A DNA stretch of 48,641 nucleotides, from assembly GCA_038244455.1 (NCBI GenBank), contig JBBRTK010000002.1, positions 1 through 48,641 of the forward strand, read 5' to 3'. The notes under the pieces are model-generated. The model saw only the letters and a list, made by a program, of their open reading frames with translations. It did no database searches and was not told the DNA's origin. Below are positions 7,039 to 42,886 of this stretch, piece by piece; the first letter of the stretch is position 1, and every line of letters begins with the position of its first letter. The translations under genes and the position numbers were made by a program. Source of the DNA: Actinomycetota bacterium. Lineage in GTDB: Bacteria > Actinomycetota > UBA4738 > HRBIN12.

Positions 7039-7071
7039 CAGCTTCCCGGGCGCGGATTCTAGCAGCAGCGG

Positions 7072-8079: not shown

Positions 8080-8083
8080 CGCG

Positions 8084-13845: not shown

Positions 13846-14342
13846 TAGCCCTCCCTGTCCACGGGATCGGTGCCAAGCGCCGGCGGCGGCTCCAGGAGCC
13901 GCTCCTTCGTCCAGATGGCTTCCTCTCGGCTGGTGAACGCCATCTCGTAGTAGCTGGTGAGCGTGAGCGCGCGCGTGGGGCAGGCCTCCACGCAGAGGCC
14001 GCACATGATGCAGCGCAGGTAGTTCACCTGGTAGTCCTTCGCGTAGCGCTCCCCCGGGCTCACGGGGTTCTCCGGATCGTTGTCGGCGCCCTCGACCCAG
14101 ATCGCATCAGCGGGACAGGCGAACGCACAGAGTTCGCAGCCGATGCACTTCTCCAGGCCGTTCTCGTGACGGTTCAGCAGGTGGCGCCCGATGTGCGAAC
14201 GCTCAGGCACCGGCACGATGACGTCGGGATAGCGCTCGGTGTTGTCCTTGCGGAACGTCTGCTTGAACACGGTGGCCATGCCCTTCGCGATCGCCCACGC
14301 CCCGGCGCCCATGCCCTGAGGTTCGGCTGCGGGCTCGCTCAC
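13845..14342 (-). CDS. nuoI: NADH-quinone oxidoreductase subunit I, 2x[4Fe-4S]
   Basis: Contains [12 protein letters not shown] and [12 protein letters not shown]. Length is 165 aa. Confidence 0.95.
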
Positions 14343-17805: not shown

Positions 17806-19118
17806 GAGGCCACCCCTTCAGTAGCGGTTGCCTGTGCATGATCGGCCGGCGCCCCCGTGAGCGGGCAGTACCCCAAACGAACGTGCTCCTCGTACTCGGC
17901 CGCGAAGTGCTTGAGACTGGAGTTGATGACCGAAGCCATGCCGTCGGCGAGCGCGCAGAAGGCCCGGAACAGGATGTTCTTGCCCATGTCCTGCATGAGC
18001 CCCATGTCCTCGGGAACCCCGTAGCCGTCCTCCATGCGCGTGAGGACGCGGGTTGCCCACCAACTGCCCTCGCGGCACGGGGTGCACTTGCCGCACGACT
18101 CGTGCGCGTAGAACAGGACCATCCGGCGCGCCGCCTCGACCACGCAATCCGTCTGATCCAGCACCATGATCGCGCCGGTCCCAAGCAGCGACCCGGCGGC
18201 CGCAACCGACTCGTAGTCCAGCGCGACGTCAAGGTCGGCCGTGGTTAGGAGCGGCGTGGACGAACCGCCGGGCGTGAACGCCTTGAGCGTTTCCCCGCCC
18301 AGCATGCCGCCCGCGTAGTCTTCGAGCAGCATCCGGAAGGGCGTGCCCATCGGAACCTCGTAGTTCCCGGGCCGCTCGACCTTGCCGCTGACGGTGAACA
18401 TCTTCGTGCCGGGCGACTTCTCCGTGCCCATCTCGCGGAACCACTCGGCGCCCTTGACGACGATGTCGGGGACATTCATCAGGGTCTCGACGTTGTTGAT
18501 GACGGTGGGGCTCGCGTAGAGGCCCTCCACGGCCGGGAACGGCGGACGCAACCGCGGCTGCCCGCGCAGTCCTTCCAGGGAGTTCAGCAGGGCGGTTTCC
18601 TCGCCGCAGATGTAGGCGCCGGCGCCGCGATGGACCACGATATCCAGGTCGTAGGAGGTGCCCGCGATCCCCGTGCCCAGGTACCCGGCCGCGTACGCCT
18701 CACGGAGGGCGCGCTCGATCACCGTGGCTTGCCACAGGTACTCCCCGCGGACGTAGATGAACGCGATGTGGCAGTTGATCGCGCGGGCGGCGATCGCGGT
18801 TCCCTCGATGAGCCTATGCGGGTCGCGTTCACCCAGCTCACGGTTGTTGCAGGTACCCGGTTCCGATTCGTCGAAGTTCACGGTGACGTAGGTGGGCTTG
18901 CCGGTGTCCTGCGGCACGAAGGACCACTTCATCCCCGTAGGGAACCCGGCGCCGCCCCGCCCCCGCAAGCCGCTTGCCTTCACGAGATCGATGAGCTCGC
19001 TGGTTTCCATGGCGAGAGCCTTCTTCAACCCCGCGTAGCCGCCCTTGGCGACGTAGCCGTCCAGAGCGATGACGCTGGGATCGCCCCAGTCGCGGGTCAG
19101 CCTCGGCTCGAACGTCAC
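17802..19118 (-). CDS. nuoF: NADH-quinone oxidoreductase subunit F (NADH/FMN site)
   Basis: Contains GLRGRGGAGFPTGMKW and the N3 cluster motif ESCGKCTPCREG. Confidence 0.97.
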   Translation of the reverse strand: MTFEPRLTRDWGDPSVIALDGYVAKGGYAGLKKALAMETSELIDLVKASGLRGRGGAGFPTGMKWSFVPQDTGKPTYVTVNFDESEPGTCNNRELGERDPHRLIEGTAIAARAINCHIAFIYVRGEYLWQATVIERALREAYAAGYLGTGIAGTSYDLDIVVHRGAGAYICGEETALLNSLEGLRGQPRLRPPFPAVEGLYASPTVINNVETLMNVPDIVVKGAEWFREMGTEKSPGTKMFTVSGKVERPGNYEVPMGTPFRMLLEDYAGGMLGGETLKAFTPGGSSTPLLTTADLDVALDYESVAAAGSLLGTGAIMVLDQTDCVVEAARRMVLFYAHESCGKCTPCREGSWWATRVLTRMEDGYGVPEDMGLMQDMGKNILFRAFCALADGMASVINSSLKHFAAEYEEHVRLGYCPLTGAPADHAQATATEGVAS

Positions 19119-19699
19119 GCCGCCCCCCCCGCCGGGTCATCGTCGAAGCCGGCCAGCACGCGCGAGGCGTGACGGAAGCTCTTCATCGCCGGACCGCGCG
19201 ACGGCTCGGGAACCGACCCGTCCCGCAGCGCGCCGATGAGCTCGCGCATCCGCTCGGGAGAGACGTTGTCGTGGTTGACGAAGTTGATCTGCACGGCGGG
19301 TGCGAAGTCGCAGACCCCGAGGCACTCCTCTTCGTGAAGTGTGAGCAGTCCATCGTCGGAGACCTCCTGCCCGCGGGCCATCCCGGCTGCGCGGTACGCC
19401 TCCTCGTACACGGCCTTCGCGCCGCGCAACGCGCACGCGAGGTTCGTACATACGTTGACGACGTGCGTGCCCGTCGGGCGAAGGCGATACATGGAGTAGA
19501 ACGTGGCAACCGACTCCACCTCCGCGGTGGTGATGTTGAGGAGCCCGCTGATCTCGACCAAGGCTTCGGGCGTGATCCGACCGTCGACGGCCTGCGCCAG
19601 ATAGAGGAGCGGCATGAGCGCGGAGCGTTCGCCGCCAGCGGGGTACCGGGAGATAACCGCGCGGGCGTCGTCGAGCACGGTTCCCTCGAAGATGGCCAT
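19115..19699 (-). CDS. nuoE: NADH-quinone oxidoreductase subunit E ([2Fe-2S])
   Basis: 194 aa with CTNLACALRG...EECLGVCDFAPA cysteine spacing, located between nuoD and nuoF. Confidence 0.93.
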   Translation of the reverse strand: MAIFEGTVLDDARAVISRYPAGGERSALMPLLYLAQAVDGRITPEALVEISGLLNITTAEVESVATFYSMYRLRPTGTHVVNVCTNLACALRGAKAVYEEAYRAAGMARGQEVSDDGLLTLHEEECLGVCDFAPAVQINFVNHDNVSPERMRELIGALRDGSVPEPSRGPAMKSFRHASRVLAGFDDDPAGGAA

Positions 19700-20961
19700 C
19701 AGCGATCCACCCCGCCCATAACCGGGTCGATGGAGGCGATCGAGGCGATAGCGTCGGCCAGCAGGAACCCTTGGACCATGATCGGCGTGGCCTGCAGATT
19801 CACGAACGAAGGGTCGCGGATCTTCACCCTGTAGGGCCGGTGTTCGCCGTTCGACACCACGTAGAAACCGAGTTCGCCGCGCGGGGACTCGACCGCCGAA
19901 TACACCTCGCCGGCCGGAACCGCGACCCCCTGCGTGGCCAGTTTGAAGTGATTGATAAGCGCCTCCATGGACTCCTCCATGATGTGGCGCACGTACTCCG
20001 GGTCGTTGCCGATGCCGTCGGGACCGACGGATAGCCGGCCGGGCAGCGCGATCTTCGGGTCATCCACCATGACGGGGCCCGGCTCCCGCAGCCGCTCCAG
20101 GCACTGCGCGACGAGCTTCAACGATTCGCGCATCTCCTCCATACGGATCTCGAACCGCGCCAGGCAGTCGGCCTGCGTCCGCGTGATCACGTCGAAGTCG
20201 TAGGTCTCATACCCGCTGTACGGCGCGTCCTTGCGCAGATCGGCGGTGTTGCCCGTCGCTCGCAGCAGGGGGCCGGTCACGCCCAGGCGAAGGGCCTGCG
20301 CCTCGGTGAGGATGCCGACGCCCTTGTTGCGTTCCAGCCAGATCGGGTTCTTCGACAGGAGCGTGTCGTACTCGTCTATGCGCCCCGGCATGACCCGAAG
20401 GAAGTTGGTGACTTTGGCTTCCCCGCCGTCGGGCAGGTCCATGACGACCCCGCCGATCCGGATGTAGGCGTGGTTCATGCGAAGCCCGGTCACGGCCTCG
20501 AAGATATCCATGATGACCTCGCGTTCGCGCATGCCGTAGAGCATGATGCTGACCGCCCCCAGCTCCAGTCCGCTGGTGGCGAGCCACACCAGGTGAGAAC
20601 TGATCCGGTTGAGCTCACCGAGCATGACGCGCAAGACCTGGGCGCGAACGGGAACCTCGATGCCCAGGAGCCGTTCGACCGCCATGCAGTAGGCGAGTTC
20701 GTTGTGGAACGGGCTCAGGTAGTCGGCTCTGGTCACGAACGTGATGCCCTGCTGCCAGGTCCGGTACTCGGTGTTCTTCTCGATGCCGGTGTGGAGGTAG
20801 CCGATGATCGGCTTGCAATCAACGATGGTCTCCCCGTCCAGCTCCAGCAGGAGCCGGAGGACCCCGTGGGTGGACGGGTGTTGCGGACCCATGTTGATGA
20901 TCATCGTTTCCTGGCGGATCTCGCCGGCGGGATCGCGGAGCATCGGATCGGTCTCCATCAC
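19699..20961 (-). CDS. nuoD: NADH-quinone oxidoreductase subunit D (49-kDa)
   Basis: 420 aa with [22 protein letters not shown] and a C-terminal ...[11 protein letters not shown]. Confidence 0.97.
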
Positions 20962-25114: not shown

Positions 25115-26962
25115 GTGCCCGTTTCCATGCCGACCACGACCCGCTTCCAGAAGCTCACCTTGGCCACAGCCTCCGTCACCGTGGTCCTGTTCGCCGTCGG
25201 GGGGTTGGTGCGAGGGTCGGGGTCGGGGCTTGGGTGCTCCACGTGGCCGCTCTGCACGCCGGGTCACCTCTTCCCCAGCGGGAACATCCACTCTCTCATC
25301 GAGTTCTCGCATCGCTTTCTGGTGTTCTGCACCACCGTGCTGGTTGCCGTCACGGCGTTCCTGGCCCGGCGGGACCACCGAGGCGAGCCGTCGATCGTTC
25401 GGCCGGCGCTGATCGCCCTCCCGCTGGTCCTGGCGCAGGCGGTGGTCGGCGGTCTGGTGGTCAACCACGAGCTGGACCCGTGGTGGGTGACCGGGCACTT
25501 CGTGGTGGCCCTGGTGTTCGTGGCCGACGTGATCTACCTGGCCATCCGATCGTTCGCGGCGGAGCCTGCCGCCCCCGCAGAACACCCGGCGGAGGGTGGG
25601 GGCTTCGGACGCCTGGCGATGGCCATCGCCGGGGCGACCGGCGTGCTTCTGCTCGCCGGGACGTGGGTGCGAGTGAGGGATGCGACGAACGGGTTGGCGT
25701 TCACCGACTGGCCGCTCGCGAACGGCAAGCTCGTTCCCGCGCTGGGTGGGGTCGCCACGCCTACGTTCGTGCACCGGGTCCTGTCGGCGCTGGTGTCCGT
25801 GCTGGTGGTCTACGCCGTGGTCCAGGCCCGCACCATGGCGCCTCGGCAGCGGCGGTTGGTTCAGTTGACCACGCTCACGCTTCTGCTGTTCGTGGGGCAG
25901 ATCCTGGTCGGGGCCGCCCAGGTGTGGACCAAGCTGAAGCCCTGGGCCGTGGTGATCCACGTCGGCATGTCGGTACTCATCTGGGCGTGCGTGGTTGCGC
26001 TGGCCGTTCTGGCGCGAAGCGCCGGCCTCCGAGGTGCGGTTCAGGTGGACGGGCCGTCCGCCGCGGACGGAGGGACCGTGCCGCTGCGCGACACGCTCAC
26101 CGCGTACTACCGGCTGATCAAACCTCGGATCATCCTCCTCCTGCTGATCACCACGGTTCCGGCCATGATCCTTGCAGGGCACCGCGTTCCCTCTATCTGG
26201 CTCATGCTGGCCACGCTGGTGGGCGGCACCGCCGCCGCGGGCTCTGCGAACGCCATCAACATGTACCTGGACCGCGACATCGACCAGATCATGGAGCGAA
26301 CACGCTCGCGGCCGCTCCCCTCGCGCGCCGTCACACCAGACCACGCTCTGCGGTTCGGCTTCTTCCTGGGAGCGGCGTCGTTCTTCTTCCTGGCGATCAC
26401 GGTGAACACCACGGCGGCGAGTCTGGCCCTGTCGGCCATCGCGTTCTATGTGTTCGTCTACACGATGTGGCTGAAGCGCTCGACGGCGCAGAACATCGTG
26501 ATCGGGGGTGCCGCGGGCGCGGCGCCGGCGTTGATCGGATGGGCCGCGGTGACCGGCGGGCTCGCGCTGCCCGCGTGGATGCTGTTCGCCATCGTGTTCG
26601 TATGGACGCCGCCGCATTTCTGGGCGCTCGCCATGCGCTACGAGGGCGACTACGCGGCCGCGGGCGTGCCGATGCTGCCGGTGGTGCGCGGTCAGGACGA
26701 AACCCGCAAGCAGATCTTCCTCTACTCGCTCCTCCTGTTCGCCGTCACGATCGCGCTGTGGCCGCTCGGCCACATGGGAACGGTCTACCTGGTGGTGGCT
26801 GTCGGGCTCGGCGGCGTCTTCTGCTACAAGGCGCTGGTCCTGTGGCGAACACCCTCACCCGAGCGAGCCTGGAAGCTCTTCGGGTTCTCGATCGTCTACC
26901 TCGCGGCGTTGTTCGCGGCCGTAGCCGTCGATGCGGTGCTGCCGGTGGCCCCGCTCCGCTGA
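25115..26962 (+). CDS. ctaB: Fused haem A synthase (CtaA/COX15, N-terminal ~310 aa) and haem O synthase / protohaem IX farnesyltransferase (CtaB/CyoE, C-terminal ~300 aa)
   Basis: The N-terminal half has GSGLGCSTWPLC and four His-bearing TM helices (FSHRF, TGHFV, FVHRV, VIHVG). The C-terminal half has YYRLIKPRI, NMYLDRDIDQIMERTRSRPLPS and WTPPHFWALA. It is one continuous frame. The start may be ATG 25127 rather than GTG 25115. Confidence 0.9.
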   Translation: MPVSMPTTTRFQKLTLATASVTVVLFAVGGLVRGSGSGLGCSTWPLCTPGHLFPSGNIHSLIEFSHRFLVFCTTVLVAVTAFLARRDHRGEPSIVRPALIALPLVLAQAVVGGLVVNHELDPWWVTGHFVVALVFVADVIYLAIRSFAAEPAAPAEHPAEGGGFGRLAMAIAGATGVLLLAGTWVRVRDATNGLAFTDWPLANGKLVPALGGVATPTFVHRVLSALVSVLVVYAVVQARTMAPRQRRLVQLTTLTLLLFVGQILVGAAQVWTKLKPWAVVIHVGMSVLIWACVVALAVLARSAGLRGAVQVDGPSAADGGTVPLRDTLTAYYRLIKPRIILLLLITTVPAMILAGHRVPSIWLMLATLVGGTAAAGSANAINMYLDRDIDQIMERTRSRPLPSRAVTPDHALRFGFFLGAASFFFLAITVNTTAASLALSAIAFYVFVYTMWLKRSTAQNIVIGGAAGAAPALIGWAAVTGGLALPAWMLFAIVFVWTPPHFWALAMRYEGDYAAAGVPMLPVVRGQDETRKQIFLYSLLLFAVTIALWPLGHMGTVYLVVAVGLGGVFCYKALVLWRTPSPERAWKLFGFSIVYLAALFAAVAVDAVLPVAPLR

Positions 26963-26966
26963 GCCG

Positions 26967-27494
26967 CTACGAGGGCGGCGGGATCGAAGGCGACGCCAGC
27001 ACCAGGTCCAGGTAGTGCGACAGCTCCGCCTGATCGGTCTTCCCGATGAATTGATAGCGCTCCGCGCCAGAAGGGTCGACGATGATCGTGTCCGGCACGT
27101 TCGGGTACTTGAGCTGCGCAGCCGTTCGACCCGAGGGATCGGACAAGCTGGGATAGGGCACCTGGAATCGCTTGATCCACGCGCGGGCGGCGGCGTTCTG
27201 GTCTTCGTAGTTGACCCCTACGAACGCGACCCCTTTGGAGGCGTAGGCGTTCGCAACCTTCACCAGGTCCGGCTGCTCCTCCCGGCACGGGGTGCACCAG
27301 GTCGCCCAGACGTTCAGGACCAGGATCTTGCCGCGATAGGTGTTGCTCGAGAGCGTGGCGGTGCCGGTCACCGACGGTCCCGACACGGTGGGAAGCGGTT
27401 CGTTAAGCGTCACGACGTGGACCAGGTGAGTGGTACCGGTGCACCCCGCCAGAGCGAACACGAGGAAGAGCGCGAGAGCGACGGCGCGGCGCAT
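26967..27494 (-). CDS. TlpA/ResA-like thiol:disulfide oxidoreductase lipoprotein
   Basis: Has the lipobox LFLVFALAGC and the thioredoxin motif WATWCTPCREE. Confidence 0.85.
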   Translation of the reverse strand: MRRAVALALFLVFALAGCTGTTHLVHVVTLNEPLPTVSGPSVTGTATLSSNTYRGKILVLNVWATWCTPCREEQPDLVKVANAYASKGVAFVGVNYEDQNAAARAWIKRFQVPYPSLSDPSGRTAAQLKYPNVPDTIIVDPSGAERYQFIGKTDQAELSHYLDLVLASPSIPPPS

Positions 27495-30380: not shown

Positions 30381-32267
30381 CTACTCCGCCACCGAGGGCT
30401 CGAGAGCCCAGCCGATGAACCCGACGAGGATGATGAACGCCGCGGCGCCCACCAGGTACCAGCTGTACAGGATGCCGTAGCCGAGCAGCGGCAGCCCGGT
30501 CGCCGCCACGAGCGGCCAGAAGGACGGGCTCGGAAGGTGGATCGCGTGCCCGGCCGCCGCTTCGTGCCCAGGGTCGTGTTCCGGCGCGGCGCCCGCCGGG
30601 ATGCGGATCAGTTCGCCGGTTCGTTCGTCGGTGGTGTATTTGCGGTGCCAGAACTCGTCCAGCGAATGGACCTCGGGCACCTCGTCGAAGTTGTGGACGG
30701 GCGGCGGGCAGGACGTCATCCACTCGATGGTCCGCGCATCCCACGGGTCCTCGTTCTCCAGCCCCTTCGGGTGCCGCGCTGTCTTCAGGACGTTCACGAT
30801 GAACACGAGCATAGCGATGGCGATGGTGAACGATCCGACCGATGCCACCTGGTTGTAGAAGGTGAGCCCGAGCGTCGCCGGGTACGTATAGGTCCGCCGG
30901 ATCATGCCTTGCAGTCCGAGGATGTGCATCGGCCCGAACGTCAGGTTCATCCCTACAACGAAGAGCCAGAAATGCACCTTTCCCAGGCGTTCGGACAGCA
31001 TCTTGCCGAAGACCTTGGGCCACCAGTAGTACATGCCCGCGAACAGCCCGAAGACGGCGCCGCCGAAGAGCACGTAGTGGAAGTGGGCGACGATGTAGTA
31101 CGTGTCGGTCTGCTGGTAGTCCGCGGGAACGATGGAGTGCGTCACGCCGGAAAGCCCGCCGATCACGAACATCGCGATCCCGCCCACTGCGAACAACATC
31201 GGCGAATCGAAATGCAGATCGCCCTGGGCCATCGTGGCCATCCAGTTGAAGATCTTCACGCCGGTGGGCACGGCGATGATCGCCGTCGAGACACCGAACG
31301 CCGTGTTCGCCACCGGGCCGAGACCCGCCGCGAACATGTGGTGCGCCCACACCCCGAACCCGATGAACCCGATCGCGATCCCGCTGAACGCCACGAACTG
31401 ATATCCGAACAACGGCTTGCGGCTGAACACCGGCAGGATCTCGCTGAAGATCCCGAACGCAGGCAAGACGAGGATGTAGACCTCGGGATGGCCGAAGAGC
31501 CAGAACAGGTGCTGCCAGAGGATCGGATCACCCCCCGCCGTCGGGTCGAAGAAGTGCGTCCCGAACCGCCGGTCGAAGAGCATCTCGACCAGGGCCACGG
31601 TGATGATCGGAAGGCTGAAGGCCAGCAGGAACTGCACGACCAGGCCCATCCAGATGAAGATGGGCATACGGAACAGGGTCATCCCCTTGGCGCGCATGTT
31701 GATGATGGTGACGGCCAGGTTCACCGCGCCCACCGACGACGCGATCCCCGTGATGAGCAGCCCGAGCGTGTAGAACGTCATCCCGATGGACGGGTCGGTG
31801 GTGGAGTTCGGCGGGTAGCCGAACCACCCGCCGTTGGGCGCGCCGCCCAGGAACCAGCTGGAGTAGAGGAACAACCCACCCAGGATGAACGCCCAGAAAC
31901 TGAAGGCGTTCAGCCGGGGGAACGCGACGTCGCGCGCGCCGATCATCAGCGGGATCAGGTAGTTGAAGAACGCCGCGCTCATCGGCATGACGAACAGGAA
32001 CACCATGGTCAGGCCGTGCATCGTGAAGATCTGGTCGTACTGCGCCGCCGTGACCAAGTGCTGATCCGGGCCCGCCAGCTGCGAGCGGATGATCAGCGCC
32101 TCGAGCCCGCCGATGAGGAAGAAAATGAACGAGGACCCGCCGTACATCAACCCGATCTTCTTGTGGTCCACCGTGGTGAACCAACTCCAGAAGCCGGTGG
32201 TCGCCGACGGCCGGCGGATGAGGCCCCTGCCGCCTTCCTCGATCACGCTGGCCATCGGTCCTTCCAT
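30381..32267 (-). CDS. ctaD: Cytochrome c oxidase subunit I (long 14-TM form)
   Basis: 628 aa with FTTVDHKKIGLMY, WFFGHPEVYILVLP-like (LFWLFGHPEVYILVLPAFG) and HFHYVLFGG. It has a C-terminal two-helix extension like Bacillus CtaD. Confidence 0.97.
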   Translation of the reverse strand: MEGPMASVIEEGGRGLIRRPSATTGFWSWFTTVDHKKIGLMYGGSSFIFFLIGGLEALIIRSQLAGPDQHLVTAAQYDQIFTMHGLTMVFLFVMPMSAAFFNYLIPLMIGARDVAFPRLNAFSFWAFILGGLFLYSSWFLGGAPNGGWFGYPPNSTTDPSIGMTFYTLGLLITGIASSVGAVNLAVTIINMRAKGMTLFRMPIFIWMGLVVQFLLAFSLPIITVALVEMLFDRRFGTHFFDPTAGGDPILWQHLFWLFGHPEVYILVLPAFGIFSEILPVFSRKPLFGYQFVAFSGIAIGFIGFGVWAHHMFAAGLGPVANTAFGVSTAIIAVPTGVKIFNWMATMAQGDLHFDSPMLFAVGGIAMFVIGGLSGVTHSIVPADYQQTDTYYIVAHFHYVLFGGAVFGLFAGMYYWWPKVFGKMLSERLGKVHFWLFVVGMNLTFGPMHILGLQGMIRRTYTYPATLGLTFYNQVASVGSFTIAIAMLVFIVNVLKTARHPKGLENEDPWDARTIEWMTSCPPPVHNFDEVPEVHSLDEFWHRKYTTDERTGELIRIPAGAAPEHDPGHEAAAGHAIHLPSPSFWPLVAATGLPLLGYGILYSWYLVGAAAFIILVGFIGWALEPSVAE

Positions 32268-33409
32268 CAGTTCAGGCTCTTCAGGTAGGCGACGAGCGCG
32301 TTGATCTCGTCGGGGCTCAGATGGTAGTTGGGCATCTTCGACCCGAGCTTGACCGCGTTGGGGTCTCGGAGCCAGGCCTGCAACGCCGCGGTGTCGCTGG
32401 TATTCCAGTCACACCCCGCGAAGCAGGAATGCGTGTAGGCGGCGAAGTGCGTGAGGTTCGGCCCGGCGGTGCCCGCGGCGGTGGTGCCGCCGATGGAGTG
32501 ACAGGCGATGCAGCTTCCGCGCCCCCCGCTCAGCGGATTCAGGAAGGTGTCCATGCCCTGCGTCGCCAAGGGGTCGGTCGGTGTGTCGCTCGGGAGCTTC
32601 TGGTTCGCGACCCACGCGGTCCAATCGATCGGACTGAGCGCGACCACGCGGACCTTCATCTTGCCGTGCTGGAGACCGCAGAACTCGGCGCACTGGCCGT
32701 AGTAGGTCCCGGGGGTGTCCGCCTGGATCAGGATGTGGTTGGTCCGGCCGGGAACCACGTCCTGCTTGCCGGCCAGCTCGGGTATCCAGAACGAGTGGAT
32801 GACCTGGAAGTCGGGGTTCGGCCCGGCGACGCCTCCGTTCAACGCGCCGCCTTCGGAGGCGAGCGAGAGGTAAACCGTGCGGCCCGCCGGGATGACCATC
32901 ACGTCGGCCGTGCTGATGGGCGCGTTCGTGCCGTAGCCGGTCTTCATGTCGGCGTCCGTGTAAGAGAAGCCCCACCACCACTGGTGACCTTGGACGGTGA
33001 TGTTGAGCGCGTTGGCGGGCGGGGGCTTGGCCAGGCTCCATATGGTGGCGATCGTCGGCACCATGACGACCGCCAGGATGAGCGCCGGCGCGATGGTCCA
33101 GGCGATCTCCAAGCGGGTGTTGCCGTGTGTCTGCGGCGGGGTTCGGTTCACGCCCTTGCGATGCCGCCACTTCAGGGCGATGAAGACGATCCCGCCCTCC
33201 ACCAGCACGAACACGGCGGCTGCGATCCAGAAGACGGGGACGAACAGACTCTTGATCTGCTGCGCGTACGGGCCTTGGGCCTTCAGGGTGTCCTGCGTGG
33301 CGTGGGGCGCACACGACGCCAACCCGAGTGCGAGCGCCACGAGCCCAAGGGCCCAGAGCACCTTCTTCCGCACGATCCCCCTGCCTCCCCGACGCACGTT
33401 CACGGGCAC
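32267..33409 (-). CDS. ctaC: Cytochrome c oxidase subunit II with C-terminal cytochrome c domain (caa3-type)
   Basis: Has the CuA motif HSFWIPELAGK...CAEFCGLQHGKM and the haem c motif CIACH plus a downstream Met. The lipobox is LGLASC. The start is probably GTG 33373 (VRKKVLW..., GGAGG upstream) rather than 33409. Confidence 0.93.
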   Translation of the reverse strand: MPVNVRRGGRGIVRKKVLWALGLVALALGLASCAPHATQDTLKAQGPYAQQIKSLFVPVFWIAAAVFVLVEGGIVFIALKWRHRKGVNRTPPQTHGNTRLEIAWTIAPALILAVVMVPTIATIWSLAKPPPANALNITVQGHQWWWGFSYTDADMKTGYGTNAPISTADVMVIPAGRTVYLSLASEGGALNGGVAGPNPDFQVIHSFWIPELAGKQDVVPGRTNHILIQADTPGTYYGQCAEFCGLQHGKMKVRVVALSPIDWTAWVANQKLPSDTPTDPLATQGMDTFLNPLSGGRGSCIACHSIGGTTAAGTAGPNLTHFAAYTHSCFAGCDWNTSDTAALQAWLRDPNAVKLGSKMPNYHLSPDEINALVAYLKSLN

Positions 33410-36917: not shown

Positions 36918-36923
36918 TATAAT
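36918..36923 (+). promoter_or_regulatory. Candidate -10 box (TATAAT) for the b6-type complex operon
   Basis: A perfect TATAAT lies 27 nt upstream of ATG 36951 in the 125-bp divergent region. GGAGAGAG SD sits between them. The -35 is weak (CTGTAG). Confidence 0.3.
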
Positions 36924-36950: not shown

Positions 36951-37343
36951 ATGAGCGTGGAGTCTGCGAACACGAGCACATCGAAGTCCCTGAAGGGCCG
37001 CGTTGAGGCGTTCCTCAGAGACTTCGAATGGACGTGGACCACTGCGGTGCTCTTCTCCTTCGGGATCCTGCTCGCACTCGTGATCGGTGTGTGCGTGATC
37101 CCGTCGTTCTGGATCTACTACGCCAACACGAACCTCCTCTGGAACCAGCCCCGGCACTTCCACCTGCTCGTCGTCACGTGGGATGCCACGGCGGTGTGGA
37201 TGGGGCTGATCCGGGACGCCATCGCCATGGGTGTCAGCACCGGTCCGATCATCACGATCCTTGTCGGTGCGTCCATCATGCAGAACCGGCGCCGCAAGCT
37301 ACGGGGTCAGACCGACTCTCGCCCCGCCGGCGGGTACCGATAA
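36951..37343 (+). CDS. Hypothetical small membrane protein (130 aa, 2-3 TM), first gene of the b6-type operon
   Basis: GC3-rich frame with an SD upstream and hydrophobic segments AVLFSFGILLALVIGVCVIPSFWIY and STGPIITILVGASIM. I recognised no family. Confidence 0.7.
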   Translation: MSVESANTSTSKSLKGRVEAFLRDFEWTWTTAVLFSFGILLALVIGVCVIPSFWIYYANTNLLWNQPRHFHLLVVTWDATAVWMGLIRDAIAMGVSTGPIITILVGASIMQNRRRKLRGQTDSRPAGGYR

Positions 37344-37352
37344 GGAGCCTGG

Positions 37353-37766
37353 ATGCCCTTCACGAAGACCGAGGTCGACATCCACGATGACTACGTCATC
37401 GAGGCCGTCGATCCGGCGTGGCTCGCGCAGGGTGTGAAATCGCCGAAGCACCTCATGCTGGATCCCGACAACTGCATCCTCTGCCGGGCGTGCGAGGACG
37501 TGTGCCCGTGGAACTGCATCCTCATGATGTCGCCGGAGATCGTCATCGGCGCGGCCGAGGACGCCGTGGGCGACGAGGTTAGGTACGCCACAGCGGTTTT
37601 CGTGGTTGACGACAATGCGTGCACTCGGTGTTCCGTGTGCGTGGACCGGTGTCCCACGGACACGCTGTACTATGCCCGACTGCCCGAGGACTCCGGCGCC
37701 AAGCGCACCATGGCCGCCGTCCCGGTGTCACAGGCCGCCGAGCCGATGGAAGAGGGGAAGGGTTGA
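37353..37766 (+). CDS. 2x[4Fe-4S] dicluster ferredoxin-like protein (cytoplasmic)
   Basis: Contains CILCRACEDVCP and CTRCSVCVDRCP, with no TM helix or signal peptide. AGGAG SD lies upstream. Its stop overlaps the next gene's start. Confidence 0.88.
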   Translation: MPFTKTEVDIHDDYVIEAVDPAWLAQGVKSPKHLMLDPDNCILCRACEDVCPWNCILMMSPEIVIGAAEDAVGDEVRYATAVFVVDDNACTRCSVCVDRCPTDTLYYARLPEDSGAKRTMAAVPVSQAAEPMEEGKG

Positions 37767-38533
37767 AGCCGAAGCTGCCGTCGCCGGGGGAACTCGGCGA
37801 CCGACTCCGCGATTCCGAGGTTTGGAAGTCCATCTTCCGGCCGGGTTCGGTGTTCCGCAAGGGGTACAAGGACACCTCCCGCGACCGTGCCCTGGCTACG
37901 ATGAACAACGTCCTGTATCACCTTCACCCCACCAAGGTGAAGCGCCACGGATTGAAGCTGACGTACACGTTCTGCCTGGGTGGACTCTCGTTCTTCCTGT
38001 TCATCGTGCTCACGGTGACGGGGATCTTCCTGATGTTCTTCTACCGGCCCATGGCCGACCTGGGAGGCGCGCAGGCCTACGCCGATATGCAGAGCATCCG
38101 AACCACGGTCTTCTTCGGGGACTGGATGCGGAACATGCACCGTTGGGGGGCCCACCTCATGGTGTTCTCGGTGACCCTGCACATGGCGCGCGTGTTCTAC
38201 ACGGGGGCGTACAAGCCTCCGCGGGAGTTCAACTGGGTGGTCGGCGTGATCCTTCTGTTCCTGACGCTCGGTCTTTCGTTCACCGGGTACCTGCTTCCCT
38301 GGGACCAGCTCTCCATCTGGGCCGTCACGGTGGGGACCTCGCTCGGGGGCTACGCCCCATTCATCGCCAAGCAGGCGAACTTCCTCCTACTGGGCGGCGC
38401 GGTGGTCGGCCCGCAAACCCTGCTCCGTTGGTATGTGCTCCACGTCCTTGCCCTTCCGTTCGTGCTCGTCCTGTTCCTGGCGGTCCACTTCTGGCGGATC
38501 CGCAAGGACGGCGGCATCTCAGGACCGCTCTAA
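37763..38533 (+). CDS. Cytochrome b6-like protein (N-terminal 4-helix half of cytochrome b; petB/qcrB-like)
   Basis: Contains TFCLGG, RNMHRWGAHLMVFSVTLH (H-x13-H), LHVLALPFVLVLFLAVH (H-x14-H) and PWDQLSIWA. It ends IRKDGGISGPL, like plastid/cyanobacterial b6. I propose a TTG start at 37763 after GAAGAGGGGAAGG. The first 48 aa of the track ORF are out-of-frame ferredoxin. Confidence 0.92.
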   Translation: MKPKLPSPGELGDRLRDSEVWKSIFRPGSVFRKGYKDTSRDRALATMNNVLYHLHPTKVKRHGLKLTYTFCLGGLSFFLFIVLTVTGIFLMFFYRPMADLGGAQAYADMQSIRTTVFFGDWMRNMHRWGAHLMVFSVTLHMARVFYTGAYKPPREFNWVVGVILLFLTLGLSFTGYLLPWDQLSIWAVTVGTSLGGYAPFIAKQANFLLLGGAVVGPQTLLRWYVLHVLALPFVLVLFLAVHFWRIRKDGGISGPL

Positions 38534-38542
38534 GGAGTAGGG

Positions 38543-39394
38543 ATGAGCTGGGAAGAAGCCAACAAGGATATGGCGGTCTACCAGGCCACCTTGGACGCGC
38601 AGCTCGCGGCCGGGGTGGACCGGAAGATCGCCGAGGGCCGCGCGCGGTCCAAGGCGCTGCGGGCCTGGCGCGAGGCACACCCCGAAGAGGCTGCTGCCGA
38701 GGCTGCCGCTTCCGCCAAGCCGGCCGCACCTGCCGCCACGCCGGCCGCCGCCGCAGCCACGACCGCTGCTCCCGCTTCCGCGGCACCTGTCCCCGCGGCG
38801 GGCACCCCCCTGCCGATGACCGCCGCAGCCGCCTCCGCGACCAAACGCGAGGCGCCCCTGCCCACGGGCGGCGTGCCCACCGCGGCCAGGAAGGGTGGGG
38901 AGGACAAGCACCGCCTGCTGGCACTGGTCCCGCCCGAGGGCATCCAGCGCGTCGAACGCGAGCAGGGCGACCGCGTGAACACCTGGCCGCACCTGCTCAT
39001 CGAAGAGTTCGTGGCGATGTTCGTGCTGCTGGCGGGGATGGCCATCTTCTCCACGTTCATCAACGCCCCACTGCGCGAACTGGCCAACCCCAACCTCACG
39101 CCGAACCCGTCGAAGGCGCCCTGGTACTTCCTCGGTTTGCAGGAACTGCTGCGCTACTTCCACCCGATGGTCGCCGGGATCATGATCCCGACATTCATCC
39201 TGGTCGGGCTCGCCGCGGTTCCCTACGTGGACCGCAACCCCAGCAACCGACCCGGCGATCGCAAGATCGCCCTCACGCTGTTCACGCTCCTCTTCATGTT
39301 CGGGGCGACCCTGACCATCATCGGATCGTTCTTCCGCGGCCCCGGATATAACTGGGTGTGGCCGTGGACCCAAGGGGTGTTCTTCGAACTATGA
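38543..39394 (+). CDS. Subunit IV-like protein (C-terminal 3-helix half of cytochrome b; petD-like) with ~110-aa extra N-terminal Ala/Pro-rich extension
   Basis: Contains NTWPHLLIEEF..., ANPNLTPNPSKAPWYFLGLQELLRYF (at the PEWY position) and three TM helices. GGAG SD lies upstream. Confidence 0.88.
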   Translation: MSWEEANKDMAVYQATLDAQLAAGVDRKIAEGRARSKALRAWREAHPEEAAAEAAASAKPAAPAATPAAAAATTAAPASAAPVPAAGTPLPMTAAAASATKREAPLPTGGVPTAARKGGEDKHRLLALVPPEGIQRVEREQGDRVNTWPHLLIEEFVAMFVLLAGMAIFSTFINAPLRELANPNLTPNPSKAPWYFLGLQELLRYFHPMVAGIMIPTFILVGLAAVPYVDRNPSNRPGDRKIALTLFTLLFMFGATLTIIGSFFRGPGYNWVWPWTQGVFFEL

Positions 39395-40107
39395 CCGCCA
39401 CCATCTCCACCGGTTCCGTCATCGCGATCCTGGCCTTCGTGGTGCTGGACGTATTCGCGGTTGTCTTCGGGCTCTCGTTCGCGCGGGCGCACAAGGCGCA
39501 GCGGGCGGCCGCCTCGGGACTTCCGGCAGCCCCACCCTCCACCGCCAAGCCGACCTCGCGCCGCGACTTCTTCCGCGGGTCCCTCCTCATCTCCATGGGA
39601 GTGTTCCTGGCCGAGTTCGGCGGGGCCTCGCTCGCGTTCCTGTGGCCCAGCCTCACGGGCGGGTTCGGATCGAAGATCAACGCTGGAGCCGTGGGCGACA
39701 TCAAGAACCAGTTCCAGAACACGGGCGGGCCGGTCTACGTGGGCGCGGGCCGGTTCTATGTCGTGCCCTATCTGGGTAAGCCCAGCAACGGGGTCGACTA
39801 CGCGGCGCTCGGCGCAACCACGGAAGGTGTCATGGCGCTTTACCAGCGTTGCGTCCACCTGGGCTGTCGCGTGCCGTTCTGCGGCACATCCAAATGGTTC
39901 GAATGCCCATGTCACGGATCGAAGTACAACTATGCAGGTGAGTACAAGTTCGGCCCCGCCCCCACGGGCATGGAACGGTTCGCGATCAAGGTCGACAGCT
40001 CCGGGAACCTGATCGTGGACACCTCGACCAAGTTCGGTGGACCGCCTCGCGGCACCGACACGATCAACGAGCCGCCGCAGGGTCCTTTCTGCGTGGCGCC
40101 GGGATAA
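39391..40107 (+). CDS. Rieske [2Fe-2S] iron-sulfur protein
   Basis: Has CVHLGC and CPCHGS boxes, a twin-arginine motif SRRDFFRGS, and one extra N-terminal TM helix. ATG 39391 overlaps the upstream stop (ATGA). Confidence 0.92.
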   Translation: MTATISTGSVIAILAFVVLDVFAVVFGLSFARAHKAQRAAASGLPAAPPSTAKPTSRRDFFRGSLLISMGVFLAEFGGASLAFLWPSLTGGFGSKINAGAVGDIKNQFQNTGGPVYVGAGRFYVVPYLGKPSNGVDYAALGATTEGVMALYQRCVHLGCRVPFCGTSKWFECPCHGSKYNYAGEYKFGPAPTGMERFAIKVDSSGNLIVDTSTKFGGPPRGTDTINEPPQGPFCVAPG

Positions 40108-40119
40108 GGGAGGAGACGG

Positions 40120-41055
40120 ATGCTGGCACTCACCACTAGCGCGGGCGTCATCCTCTTGGTCCTGGGCGCGGTCTTCGTGGTCGCCGCGGGCGGCGGACTT
40201 CTCCTGCGTTCGCGCACGCGCCGCGCGGGGTTGGAGATCCCTCGGGCGATGCGCCCCGGCCCTTCGGATCAGGCCCTGGAAACCCCGCTGCTGCAGAAGC
40301 TCCAGGGATGGGGCGTGCTGCTCACCGCGTTCTTCGTGCTGTGGATCCCGTTCAACTGGGTCACCGAGCCCGGCATAAACCTCGCGCAGGACCAGAACCT
40401 GAAGACGGCGGCTATCTCCCGGGGCCAGCAGGCGGTCCTGCCCTACTCCGAGGAGAACCAGCTGGGTATCGGCTGCACCCGCTGCCACGGCCCCGAGCTC
40501 AAGGGTGGAACCGTCATCCAGATCGGCGTCGACCCGGTCACCGGCGCCGTGATCCCCGGCCGCCCCGCGAACCTGTCCACCGTCTGCGGGGGACCGTTCA
40601 CCGGGCACCCACAGATCTGGGATGTCTCCGACATCCAAGGGACGCTCGTGAACGGACGGGCCAGCCTGGGCATGCCGTCGTGGAGCATCCGGGAGGCCGG
40701 GGCGCTCGACGACCAGCAGATCAACGACCTCGTGAACTACCTGGTCTGGTACAGCTCGAAGAACGTGCCGTTCAGCGAGAACATCTGCCTCAACCCCGAC
40801 GCCCAGAAGGCCGCGGTGCTCGTCTGCACCTCGGCCGTGCAGTCGGCCCCGACCCTCTACTCCTATCAGCACGTCATCAAGCCACTCATCGACGCCGCGG
40901 CTGCCGCCGCCGCGAAGGCGTCCGCGGCGCCGAGCGCACCTTCGGCTTCGGCTGCTGCTTCGCCGAGTGCACCGGCCACAGCGGCGAGCGGCGCACCGTC
41001 GGCGACGCCAACGCTCTCGCCGATAGCGGCACTGCCCCCGGGGGTGAGCTGCTGA
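40120..41055 (+). CDS. Membrane-anchored monohaem cytochrome c
   Basis: A single CTRCH motif (40474-40488) with a candidate Met ligand in LGMPSW. It has two N-terminal TM helices, an Ala/Ser/Pro-rich C-terminal tail, and GGGAGGAG SD upstream. Confidence 0.85.
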   Translation: MLALTTSAGVILLVLGAVFVVAAGGGLLLRSRTRRAGLEIPRAMRPGPSDQALETPLLQKLQGWGVLLTAFFVLWIPFNWVTEPGINLAQDQNLKTAAISRGQQAVLPYSEENQLGIGCTRCHGPELKGGTVIQIGVDPVTGAVIPGRPANLSTVCGGPFTGHPQIWDVSDIQGTLVNGRASLGMPSWSIREAGALDDQQINDLVNYLVWYSSKNVPFSENICLNPDAQKAAVLVCTSAVQSAPTLYSYQHVIKPLIDAAAAAAAKASAAPSAPSASAAASPSAPATAASGAPSATPTLSPIAALPPGVSC

Positions 41056-41819
41056 TGCACGTCAGCACGTGTCTCGGATTCCACGTCGAGTGCGGCACGA
41101 TGTTCAAGGGGATCGGCGTCACCGTAATGGCGTTCATCCTGTTCATCGGTTCTGTCTACCTGTTGCTCTCGGCGATCCTTGGCCGGTGGATGGGCTACCT
41201 CCTGGTCGTCGTAGCGTTCGCCGGCTGGATGACCGTGCTCTCGGTCATGTGGCTTACCGGGTTCTTCATCAGCCAAGGGCTCCCAGCGAACACTCCCCAC
41301 AACACCGGACCGCAGGGCCAGCTGGCCGAGTGGGTGCCGCTGAACGCCGGTGCCCAAGCCCCGATCGATCTGGCCGCGAACTACGCCGCCTTCTCCTCCT
41401 ACCCGGCCAAGCCGTGGGTCGAAGCCACCGACCCCGCCGACCCACAGGTCCAGGCGGCGGAGAGCGTCGCGCAGGCATTCCTGGCCAAGGAGGCGAACGC
41501 CGCGCACGGCATCTACGACGCGTTCGCTATCGATGCCATCACCACATCGCAGTTCATGGTCGACCACATCGCGTTCACGACCGCCGCCGACGGGAAGACC
41601 CAACTGGCCATCGTCGAGGCGCACTACGCGAGCGGTGGTCCCAGGACCATCGTGGCCATGTACTTCGACCAGGGCAGCGTTCAGCGATACGGACTCTACT
41701 TCCTCATCTTCTCGTTGCTGCTGCTGGGCACGCATCTCCCCCTCCTGGACCGGGCGGAGAAGCGTCGCAAGGCATTCCTGACCGGGGGCGCCGCCCCCGC
41801 CTGGTACGGACCCGCGTAG
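41055..41819 (+). CDS. Hypothetical membrane protein (2 N-terminal TM, ~150-aa extracytoplasmic domain, 1 C-terminal TM)
   Basis: This is the real part of the 503-aa track ORF, in a GC3-rich frame. ATG 41055 overlaps the cytochrome c stop (TGATG). An alternative ATG lies at 41100 (MFKGIGV...). I recognised no family. Confidence 0.7.
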   Translation: MHVSTCLGFHVECGTMFKGIGVTVMAFILFIGSVYLLLSAILGRWMGYLLVVVAFAGWMTVLSVMWLTGFFISQGLPANTPHNTGPQGQLAEWVPLNAGAQAPIDLAANYAAFSSYPAKPWVEATDPADPQVQAAESVAQAFLAKEANAAHGIYDAFAIDAITTSQFMVDHIAFTTAADGKTQLAIVEAHYASGGPRTIVAMYFDQGSVQRYGLYFLIFSLLLLGTHLPLLDRAEKRRKAFLTGGAAPAWYGPA

Positions 41820-41833
41820 AGGAGGGACAGCAC

Positions 41834-41944
41834 ATGTTGGCCGAAACGGTTCCCCTCCTGGAGCAAGGGAGCGTCCAGTTCATCCTCCTCGGGGTGATGA
41901 TCCTGGCCGTGTTCTTCGTGCTCTGGATCACCATCGCGAAGTAG
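41834..41944 (+). CDS. Putative 36-aa single-TM peptide
   Basis: MLAETVPLLEQGSVQFILLGVMILAVFFVLWITIAK. GGAGGG lies 8 nt upstream of the ATG. It is the last ORF of the operon. This is prediction only. Confidence 0.45.
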   Translation: MLAETVPLLEQGSVQFILLGVMILAVFFVLWITIAK

Positions 41945-41954
41945 CCCGACCCCG

Positions 41955-42650
41955 CTAGGGCCTCGGCTTCGACGGGACGTCCGCAACCGCGCGGCCCCGC
42001 CGCTTCACCTCGGCAAGCGTTGCCTTCCGCTGTTCGTAGAAGGCCAGGATCTGGAGTTCGATGGCCAGGTCCACCTTCCGCACCGAGACACCGGGCGGAA
42101 CGGTGATGACGGCCGGAGCGAAGTTGAGGATCGAATGGATCCCCGCCGCCACCATCGTGTCGACCACCTCTTGCACAGCCGCTGCCGGGGTCGCGATCAC
42201 GCCGATGGCCACGTCGTTCGCCGACACGAGGGCAGGCAGGGCCGAGACCGGCAGGATCTCGAGCCCCCCGACCTTCTGGCCCACCTTCGCCGGATCCGCG
42301 TCCACGAGTCCCGCCACCCGGAATCCGCGTTCGCCGAAGCCCTTGTAGTTGGCCAGCGCCTGCCCCAGGTTCCCGATGCCGGCGATGACGATCGCCCAGT
42401 GCTGCGTGAGCCCCAGTTCCCGGCGGATCTGGTGGATGAGGTAGGCCGCGTCGTAACCGACCCCGCGCGTGCCGTACGAGCCCAGGTAGGACAGGTCCTT
42501 ACGGACCTTCGCGGAGTTGACGCCGGCCGCCTCGGCCAGATCATCGGAACTGACCATGGTGGTTCCGGTCTCGGCGATGTCGACCAACGCCCGCAGGTAC
42601 ACCGGGAGCCTGGCAACCGTGGCCTCGGGGATGGAACGGTCCCTCATCAT
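41955..42650 (-). CDS. rex: Redox-sensing transcriptional repressor Rex
   Basis: The C-terminal 231 aa of the 297-aa track ORF (MMRDRSIPEATVARLPVYLRAL..., KVRKDLSYLGSYGTRGVGY, Rossmann IAGIGNLGQAL). ATG 42650 overlaps the upstream stop. Confidence 0.93.
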   Translation of the reverse strand: MMRDRSIPEATVARLPVYLRALVDIAETGTTMVSSDDLAEAAGVNSAKVRKDLSYLGSYGTRGVGYDAAYLIHQIRRELGLTQHWAIVIAGIGNLGQALANYKGFGERGFRVAGLVDADPAKVGQKVGGLEILPVSALPALVSANDVAIGVIATPAAAVQEVVDTMVAAGIHSILNFAPAVITVPPGVSVRKVDLAIELQILAFYEQRKATLAEVKRRGRAVADVPSKPRP

Positions 42651-42886
42651 CCCGACCCGCTCACGAGTTCGCGGAGCCGCTCGGCGTCCACCTCGATCTC
42701 GAACGCCTCTACGCCGTCGATCAGGACCACCGGGATCCGCATCCCGTACTCGAGTTCCAGGGCGTCTTCGGTGGAAACATCGACCTCGACCAGGTCGAAC
42801 GGCGTCCGGTCCCGCTGGGCCAGGAGCACGCCCCGAGCCACGTCGCACAGGTGACAGCCGGGCCTTGAGAAGAGGGTGACCTGCAC
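42647..42886 (-). CDS. Glutaredoxin-like small protein (DUF836-type, CxxC)
   Basis: 79 aa with VTLFSRPGCHLCD. It is coupled to rex. Confidence 0.8.
   Translation of the reverse strand: MQVTLFSRPGCHLCDVARGVLLAQRDRTPFDLVEVDVSTEDALELEYGMRIPVVLIDGVEAFEIEVDAERLRELVSGSG

Follow-up and report, generated by a model that had tools for sequence, protein, structure and literature searches.

We describe an eight-gene operon that encodes a b6f-like Rieske/cytochrome b complex together with a ferredoxin and three membrane proteins in a bacterium of the phylum Actinomycetota (HRBIN12 lineage). It lies in a stretch of 48,641 nucleotides (nt) of contig JBBRTK010000002.1 (assembly GCA_038244455.1), which was analyzed at its full length and is called the window here, and its genes are numbered g1 to g8 in order (Table 1). 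The textbook complex III of actinobacteria is the QcrCAB supercomplex. The eight-gene operon is real and widely conserved in uncultured soil Actinomycetota, and we propose, with moderate confidence, that it encodes a b6c-type menaquinol:cytochrome c oxidoreductase of the "APWY" clade. This enzyme would probably be a complex III of the surrounding aerobic chain, and the ferredoxin would serve it as an iron-sulfur (FeS) gate. Judged by motif, all of the cofactor sites of a b6f-like core are present, namely, four His residues, the heme cn Cys, an APWY loop at the quinol oxidation (Qo) site, the Rieske cluster, and one c heme. The operon is thus a variant of a partly known, still uncharacterized kind of complex and not a new class.

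A preliminary description of this DNA had listed eight open reading frames (ORFs) at positions 36951 to 41944, on one strand and tightly packed or overlapping, and all eight were present. Gaps of 9, 9, 12, and 14 nt separate four pairs of neighbors; two pairs (g2/g3 and g4/g5) overlap by 4 nt, and g6/g7 overlap by 1 nt (TGATG). Shine-Dalgarno (SD) sequences had been claimed for most of the genes. Purine-rich SD-like sequences do precede g1, g2, g3, g4, g6, and g8, but those before the overlapping g5 and g7 are weak. The GC content of g1 to g8 is 0.83 to 0.92 at third codon positions versus 0.27 to 0.54 at second positions, and because this contrast is found in all eight ORFs, they carry the coding signature of a genome with 67% GC. 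Additionally, separate gene calls on two other contigs matched for g1 (130 amino acids [aa]), g2 (137 aa), and the overlapping g3 start. A consensus scan of the operon returned no internal promoter-like sites and two terminator-like matches, which is within chance expectation. Upstream of g1, the divergent intergenic region between ccdA and g1 is 125 nt long and holds a TATAAT hexamer; no full -35/-10 promoter was found by the consensus scan, and this hexamer is therefore only a candidate -10 box. Orthologues of every gene of the operon occur elsewhere in the same order, which places the operon far beyond chance.

This conservation was examined by a scan with g3 that kept one genome per species and yielded at least 593 loci, the best 80 of which were kept. 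Synteny at these loci was determined by tblastn with all eight proteins. In these best 80 species genomes, the order ferredoxin-b6-subunit IV-Rieske-cytochrome c was kept wherever flanking DNA exists, and the cytochrome c gene held its syntenic place at most loci whose downstream DNA was long enough. The key test named in the preliminary description, synteny of the ferredoxin and the flanking membrane genes with the Rieske and cytochrome b genes, gave a positive result across many genomes. Its claim of an actinobacterial context also stands, as the 52 best loci come from metagenome-assembled genomes of Actinomycetota, including Nitriliruptoria (Euzebya, Egibacteraceae, and Nitriliruptorales) and one member of the Acidimicrobiia; one of the 52 is labeled only "uncultured bacterium." The remaining loci, L053 to L080, are mostly from Chloroflexota (Limnocylindria), with two (L059 and L067) labeled otherwise.

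The identities first proposed for the genes of the redox core agree with Pfam, which gave Fer4 twice in g2, Cytochrome_B in g3, Cytochrom_B_C in g4, Rieske in g5, and Cytochrom_C in g6. The closest structures in the PDB to the four-helix g3 protein are plastid and cyanobacterial cytochrome b6 chains (E value of 4e-44). Among NCBIfam models, g3 scored 287.5 bits against ExtP (cutoff, 290), 200.9 against PRK03735 "cytochrome b6" (cutoff, 325), and 113 against actinobacterial QcrB (cutoff, 500). The His ligands for two b hemes (HRWxAH and HV...VHFW) are kept in at least 95% of 79 sequences, and the Cys of the CxGG motif, which is a heme cn ligand in b6f, is kept in 79 of 79. In g3 this residue is Cys71 (FCLGG), and it is a putative heme cn site. 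The protein also carries a conserved extension at its N terminus, about 36 aa long, on the membrane's negative side (n side), with the motif RALAxMNNVxxHLHPxxVKRH. Within residues 1 to 70 (positions 37763 to 37975), His 53, 55, and 62 of the extension are kept in at least 95% of the 79 orthologues, in both phyla. In AlphaFold3 models of complexes from Kuenenia, an extra b heme is proposed to lie between two b6 monomers with a His ligand (His43/His62) in the N-terminal region (PMC12954380). His 53, 55, and 62 of g3 are at most candidate counterparts of this ligand.

The subunit IV encoded by g4 has an N-terminal extension of about 140 aa that is Ala/Pro rich from about residue 50. Its NCBIfam matches were ExtQ (5.9e-15; 55.7 bits, with a cutoff of 150) and cytb6_f_IV (3.4e-5). 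The APWY motif, which differs from PEWY at its first and second positions, was found in 61 of 61 subunit IV orthologues. In the Rieske protein g5, an N-terminal transmembrane helix is followed by an internal twin-arginine motif, SRRDFF (about residue 56), and a second transmembrane helix. Because a hydrophobic helix lies ahead of SRRDFF (positions 39391 to 39640), the signal, which resembles one for twin-arginine translocation (Tat), lies inside the chain, a feature shared with actinobacterial QcrA. CxCHGS[KR]Y, one of the two Rieske boxes, is kept in 62 of 63 orthologues, and the CVHLGC box is conserved as well. The top PDB matches of g5 were the crystal structures 9rk4 (Kuste4569; 3.5e-14) and 9rk3 (Kustd1480; 3.6e-13), ahead of b6f PetC and of any b6f or bc1 Rieske protein, and the score against the actinobacterial QcrA model (bc1_QcrA_actin) was 32.9 bits, with a cutoff of 275. 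In the cytochrome c g6, the Met of GMPSW is a candidate heme ligand, and an Ala/Ser/Pro-rich C-terminal tail of about 70 residues ends in Cys. One CxxCH motif was counted in 31 of the cytochrome c sequences (that of the window and its close relatives) and two were counted in 19 (from Nitriliruptoria and Chloroflexota).

The ferredoxin g2 is the component that sets this operon apart from a plain Rieske/cytochrome b operon. Both of its CxxCxxCxxxCP motifs, with the eight cluster Cys residues, are kept in 72 of 72 orthologues, and wherever a locus has enough upstream DNA, in either phylum, its gene immediately precedes b6. Its closest PDB sequences are FwdF polyferredoxins. In the Chloroflexota-type loci, the ferredoxin position upstream of b6 is occupied by an NfnB/GltD-like FeS flavoprotein of about 660 aa, which consists of Fer4_20 (two clusters), Pyr_redox_2 (binding flavin adenine dinucleotide [FAD] and NAD(P)), and a C-terminal 2x[4Fe-4S] domain. 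The alignment of this last domain with g2 spans the two cluster motifs as well as the insertion that separates them. The top PDB relatives of the flavoprotein are NfnA, the NfnABC chain of 9bov/9bp5, NfnB, and GltD, and its C-terminal part matches FwdF in 5t5i. At L053, for example, a five-gene cluster (5028 to 9772) has the order flavoprotein-b6-subunit IV-Rieske-cytochrome c. The GltD/NfnB-like part was found in 26 of 26 Chloroflexota-type loci with enough upstream DNA and in no actinobacterial locus and nowhere in the window. Given the homology of g2 to the flavoprotein C terminus, the Kuenenia-like Rieske protein, and the missing flavin part, the window complex is best seen as a ferredoxin-only relative of flavoprotein-bearing complexes.

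Two of the loci that group with the Chloroflexota type by their b6 carry other labels, namely, Steroidobacteraceae and Sulfomarinibacteraceae for L059 (JAICUY010000026.1) and L067 (DATIUS010000079.1), respectively. The upstream flavoprotein is present at L059, and at L067 the contig ends short of the upstream gene. These labels could reflect misbinning or horizontal transfer. Several proteins also looked at first like fusions of the ferredoxin with b6 or of g1 with the ferredoxin (P0003, which has 407 aa with Fer4 and cytochrome b, and P0243, P0246, P0256, P0313, P0327, and P0335). We rejected them as adjacent genes frameshifted in low-quality assemblies, because they contain out-of-frame Arg/Ala-rich stretches and are missing the second cluster motif. 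Where ferredoxin and b6 are in the same frame among the loci, a stop codon lies in between.

Complexes with a cytoplasmic FeS module of this kind have a precedent in anammox bacteria. NAD(P)-linked Rieske/cytochrome b complexes of Kuenenia were reportedly proposed by Kartal et al. in 2013. In Kuenenia stuttgartiensis, the complexes Kuste4569-4574 and Kustd1480-1485 carry putative NAD(P) oxidoreductase subunits (Hauser et al. 2025, PMC12954380). The structural homologues given there for Kuste4570 are 9bp5 and 5t5i (Hauser et al., PMC12954380), the same as those of the Chloroflexota flavoprotein here. In the AlphaFold3 models, the cytochrome b dimer carries one reductase on its cytoplasmic side, with four FeS clusters running to FAD, and reductase residues Arg511 and Arg550 are placed against the dimer (PMC12954380). 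From their late position in the chain, we infer that both residues may belong to the di-cluster domain. The preliminary description had held that no operon-encoded ferredoxin was known for split cytochrome b complexes. This was overstated or incomplete, given the Kuenenia oxidoreductase subunits and the homology of g2 to the C-terminal di-cluster domain of such proteins.

The window and the Kuenenia complexes share a split b6 with the heme cn Cys, a separate subunit IV, a Ser/Tyr-type Rieske protein (CPCHGSKY), and an operon-encoded cytoplasmic FeS module whose gene adjoins b6, with g2 matching the FwdF-like di-cluster part of the reductases. They differ in that the window has the di-cluster protein only and no FAD/NAD(P) domain, a monoheme c instead of hexa- or octaheme cytochromes and an HAO-like protein, and a subunit IV with three transmembrane helices instead of five. 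The window also adds g1, g7, and g8, has another gene order, and is set beside an aerobic caa3 oxidase rather than in the anammoxosome. Lacking both a flavin domain and a multiheme cytochrome, the window complex corresponds only in part to the anammox type, sharing with it the Kuste4569/Kustd1480 type of Rieske protein. The Chloroflexota relatives (L053 to L080) are closer to the anammox design than the window is. Their flavoprotein form has that design, and we found no description of it for that phylum.

Split cytochrome b itself is not new to the phylum. It has been catalogued in Rubrobacter, Conexibacter, Patulibacter, and Ilumatobacter (Kao and Hunte 2014, PMC4122944) and also in Planctomycetes, Chloroflexi, delta-Proteobacteria, and Symbiobacterium, under the names "APWY clade," group A2, and subfamily G (PMC4122944, PMC3509893, and PMC5600118). 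The "APWY clade" is characterized by a split cytochrome b, the Qo motif APWY, and usually CxGG (PMC4122944). Group A2 of Baymann in 2012 joins Kuenenia 1 and 2 with Ktedonobacter and Symbiobacterium (PMC3509893), and subfamily G of Dibrova is a similar, taxonomically mixed group, mostly of short b proteins (PMC5600118). By their motifs (APWY and CxGG), the b6 and subunit IV of the window belong to the "APWY clade." The composition and synteny of the operon therefore support the distinct b6-type variant that had been put forward from the letters, but its novelty was overstated, as split b had already been catalogued in deep-branching Actinobacteria. For the ferredoxin-only actinobacterial form, for g1, g7, and g8, and for the Chloroflexota flavoprotein form, no description was found in the literature searched, with several subscription papers beyond the reach of that search. 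An architecture that combines a lone ferredoxin with three additional membrane proteins thus appears to be undescribed.

No significant Pfam or NCBIfam family was found for any of these three membrane proteins. The g1 protein has conserved motifs in 39 orthologues (FEWTWT, IPSFWLYFA, RDAxAMG, and a C-terminal TGGYR tail), all at actinobacterial loci with a free-standing ferredoxin. In the survey of actinobacterial loci other than L039, L040, and L049, divergent homologues with two transmembrane helices (IPSxW, RDxxxM, and a C-terminal GGY[KR]) were found upstream of the ferredoxin at nine further loci. The candidate at L050 diverges further, lacks the GGY[KR] tail, and is doubtful. In the Chloroflexota-type loci, with their flavoprotein, g1 is absent. 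We propose that g1 may be an accessory subunit that accompanies the free-standing ferredoxin.

Homologues of g7 number 379 in a large protein collection, and all are unnamed or "hypothetical." Its AlphaFold2 model had a mean confidence (pLDDT) of 82.7, and neither a Foldseek comparison of this model with the PDB (best E value, 0.045; template-modeling score, about 0.13) nor a search of the PDB with the g7 sequence gave a meaningful match. The gene is syntenic across Actinomycetota and went undetected at the single Chloroflexota locus where it was sought. A Chloroflexota ORF downstream of cytochrome c was considered as a g7 relative and rejected, as profile comparison showed no relationship. 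In g7, Cys6 is nearly invariant and Cys13 is invariant, and the pair is predicted to lie on the outer face ahead of the first transmembrane helix. The cytoplasmic tail is positively charged and highly conserved (LPLLDRAEKxRKxFLTGGxAPxWYGPA). The g8 peptide occurs at the matching position in 19 related loci with the consensus LLDQGSVQFILxGVMxLAV...LWITIAK. For both g7 and g8, a role as structural subunits particular to this lineage is probable, and by analogy of size we propose that g8 may be a small subunit like the PetG/L/M/N peptides of b6f.

It is quite unlikely, in our judgment, that the operon encodes an ordinary Q-cycle core and that the ferredoxin, g1, g7, and g8, instead of being stable subunits, are transcribed along with it to act in assembly, maturation, or regulation (for heme cn attachment or FeS insertion, for example) or are unrelated membrane proteins that accompany it. 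Such a reading draws on the indirect case for these four proteins as subunits, on the restriction of g7 and g8 to Actinomycetota and of g8 to close relatives, which makes them dispensable for the family as a whole, and on the fact that g7 has no recognizable cofactor site apart from its conserved Cys pair. However, the stop codon of g2 overlaps the start of g3, which suggests translational coupling and matched stoichiometry, and in Chloroflexota and anammox bacteria the domain homologous to g2 sits in a large redox enzyme and not in a chaperone. Furthermore, the anammox subunits comigrate in complexome data cited in PMC12954380, and g1 and g7 match neither the CCB families of heme cn maturation nor any other Pfam family.

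In the explanation that we prefer, the complex would oxidize quinol at Qo with electron bifurcation. One electron would pass through the high-potential-type Rieske protein (CPCHGSKY, the box of Kuste4569) to the anchored monoheme c and from there to the neighboring caa3 oxidase, which would take it up at its cytochrome c domain, and the other would cross the membrane via hemes bp, bn, and cn. The g2 ferredoxin would attach as a peripheral subunit to the cytoplasmic side of the b6 dimer, aided by g1 and the N-terminal extension of b6, and would act as an electron gate between heme bn/cn and a cytoplasmic partner. We place it there because of its topology, the gene overlap, and its homology with the domain found at the equal gene position in the flavoprotein forms. 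The preferred direction is outward, such that quinol-driven bifurcation would send some of the low-potential electrons to the FeS subunit. This direction is the weakest step of the explanation, and it is preferred because of the anammox proposal and because of energetics. Menaquinone has a potential of about -74 mV. For the Rieske protein Kuste4569, a potential of +303 mV has been measured (PMC12954380). By analogy, a Rieske protein near +300 mV working with menaquinone could in principle bring the second electron to about -450 mV, enough for a [4Fe-4S] cluster. Carried to its end, this would make complex III a bifurcating enzyme in aerobic Actinomycetota, one that puts a low-potential electron from menaquinol onto a bound ferredoxin without reverse flow driven by the proton motive force, with the Chloroflexota and anammox versions ending in NAD(P)H; we regard that extended claim as tentative and unlikely.

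Several observations weigh against the preferred explanation. The Rieske potential and the quinone type of the window complex are values that we infer, and it is synteny, topology, and homology that make the case for g1, g2, g7, and g8 as subunits, with g2 on the n side. For g2, an AlphaFold2 model that drew on few and similar sequences (17, all at least 79% identical) had a pLDDT of 36.9 and was unusable. Neither the 48.6-kb window nor the DNA within 7 kb at the actinobacterial loci encodes a flavoprotein or another obvious partner of g2, and no natural fusion of the ferredoxin with b6 or of g1 with the ferredoxin was found among the loci compared. Finally, it is not evident why an aerobic heterotroph, as this organism would be, should need to reduce ferredoxin with quinol.

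The same module could instead be an electron inlet, in which a low-potential cytoplasmic donor (reduced ferredoxin or NAD(P)H via a separate reductase) would feed electrons through the two [4Fe-4S] clusters to heme cn/bn and menaquinone at the n-side site, a hard-wired form of the ferredoxin:quinone reductase route that has long been suggested for b6f in cyclic electron flow. The strictly conserved heme cn Cys beside the proposed docking face would suit such an inlet, ferredoxin donation to heme cn in b6f has already been proposed (PMC5600118), and the gene for the redox-sensing repressor Rex is conserved beside the operon in close relatives. We nevertheless consider an inlet unlikely. Sequence does not reveal direction, the spans just given encode no donor enzyme, an outward course to NAD(P)+ is what has been proposed for the related anammox complexes, and the window already encodes complex I for electron transfer from NADH to quinone.

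If the FeS module does exchange electrons with heme bn/cn, then this family would comprise variants of complex III that have a third port for electrons, and the ferredoxin-only form would be the simplest member in which to probe such a cytoplasmic port. Such a complex would further serve as nature's own model of how a ferredoxin can be wired to heme cn, a matter of relevance to cyclic electron flow through b6f by the ferredoxin:quinone route. More broadly, many uncultured soil and water Actinomycetota and Nitriliruptoria encode an enzyme that is different from QcrCAB and b6f-like, with a proposed cytoplasmic FeS subunit, and the comparison links three subjects so far treated apart, the "APWY" cytochrome b clade, the NAD(P)H-generating complexes proposed for anammox bacteria, and a widespread flavoprotein version in Chloroflexota that had not been remarked on before. 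Euzebya, a member of the Nitriliruptoria, offers cultured aerobic species that would be far easier to work with than anammox enrichments.

Among characterized enzymes, cyanobacterial and plastid b6f share with the window complex the four-helix b6, the three-helix subunit IV, the CxGG site, the same Rieske sequence type, and a small peptide with one transmembrane helix. The window differs by its class I monoheme c in place of cytochrome f, by APWY in place of PEWY, by having no match to PetG/L/M/N, and by the b6 N-terminal extension, the ferredoxin gene that overlaps b6, and the respiratory setting. With no cytochrome f, the enzyme does not qualify as a true b6f. In Bacillus, the QcrABC gene order is Rieske-b6-IV/c. 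The b6c complexes of Bacillus and Heliobacterium (QcrABC/PetCBDA) resemble the window in being Gram-positive, probably menaquinol-oxidizing systems with split b6 and subunit IV, a heme ci/cn Cys, and a c-type cytochrome. However, g3 reaches only 200.9 bits against PRK03735 (cutoff, 325), the cytochrome c of the window is separate and not fused to subunit IV, the order is b6-IV-Rieske-c, and neither a ferredoxin nor g1, g7, or g8 occurs in the Bacillus and Heliobacterium operons. QcrCAB of Mycobacterium and Corynebacterium comes from the same phylum, has a presumed role from menaquinol to an aa3-type oxidase, and includes a Rieske protein with extra transmembrane helices before an internal Tat-like motif. 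In contrast, cytochrome b in the window is split where QcrB is long and unsplit, there is one c heme instead of two, and the oxidase carries its own cytochrome c domain. By these features, the window enzyme falls outside the QcrCAB type.

The operon stands at the end of a respiratory island (1378 to 36825) that lies mostly on the minus strand. In addition to the genes in Table 1, the island contains Caa3_CtaG, COX4, COX3, COX1, CcsA/ResC, ResB, and CcdA genes. Judged by their domains, the COX genes with the COX2-cytochrome c fusion encode a caa3-type oxidase, and ResA, ResB, CcsA, and CcdA form a System II cytochrome c maturation pathway. Because a caa3 oxidase, cytochrome c maturation, and complex I are the neighbors, a forward respiratory role of the operon is indicated, from quinol to cytochrome c to caa3. 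This bears on a further alternative, that the complex as a whole runs in reverse and confurcates electrons from cytochrome c/Rieske and a low-potential ferredoxin input onto menaquinone. The APWY motif is said to mark reverse-direction complexes, citing the Geobacter p-cresol system (Kao and Hunte, PMC4122944), but this idea is a proposal only; the caa3 oxidase and complex I fit forward flow, and no periplasmic substrate-oxidizing enzyme is encoded nearby. Reverse running is, in our view, very improbable. The Rex gene is on the other side of the operon, and a search for a Rex operator (TTGTGAAN6TTCACAA with up to 3 mismatches) gave no site anywhere in the window.

Table 1. Positions in the window of the operon genes (g1 to g8) and of neighboring features
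Feature	Coordinates	Strand	Details
g1, membrane protein, 130 aa	36951..37343	+	Two transmembrane helices (32-50, 91-109); both tails predicted cytoplasmic
g2, soluble 2x[4Fe-4S] ferredoxin, 137 aa	37353..37766	+	Fer4, 9e-13, two stretches; no transmembrane helix, no signal peptide
g3, four-helix cytochrome b6, 256 aa	37763..38533	+	TTG start; Pfam PF00033 Cytochrome_B, 3.3e-41
g4, subunit IV, 283 aa	38543..39394	+	Three transmembrane helices; Qo motif APWY; PF00032 Cytochrom_B_C, 6.3e-9
g5, Rieske [2Fe-2S] protein, 238 aa	39391..40107	+	PF00355 Rieske, 1.8e-8; boxes CVHLGC, CPCHGSKY
g6, membrane-anchored monoheme class I cytochrome c, 311 aa	40120..41055	+	Pfam Cytochrom_C, 1.3e-4; CTRCH
g7, membrane protein, 254 aa	41055..41819	+	Predicted: two N-terminal transmembrane helices, extracytoplasmic alpha/beta domain of about 135 aa, one C-terminal transmembrane helix
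g8, peptide with one transmembrane helix, 36 aa	41834..41944	+	Third-position GC, 0.92
TATAAT hexamer, candidate -10 box	36918..36923	+	28 nt upstream of g1 start; read directly
Two NuoL-like genes	1378-3357, 11076-12971		In mostly minus-strand island
NuoI, H, G, F, D	13845-20961		In mostly minus-strand island
CtaA-CtaB fusion	25115-26962	+	
ResA-like thioredoxin	26967-27494		
Cupredoxin, 355 aa	27534-28601		
COX2 fused to cytochrome c domain	32267-33409		
Rex-type redox-sensing repressor gene	41955-42848	-	Downstream of and convergent to operon; kept in L001-L026

The nearest curated hidden Markov models for both b6 and subunit IV are those of the Geobacter ExtOPQ proteins (extHIJKLMNOPQS cluster), ExtP and ExtQ. 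The scores of 287.5 and 55.7 bits are below the cutoffs of 290 and 150 (NF040969/NF040970), and the window has no multiheme cytochromes, porin, or rhodanese nearby. The description of the Geobacter Ext cluster lists no ferredoxin (PMC5877670). We therefore rejected an ExtP/ExtQ identity for g3 and g4, as these are merely the nearest curated cytochrome b models and the context is very different. In NCBI, the actinobacterial homologues P0071, P0090, and P0120 are labeled "selenite/tellurite reduction operon b-type cytochrome ExtP," and this naming of actinobacterial homologues looks like systematic overannotation; a "selenite/tellurite" name has no justification for such proteins.

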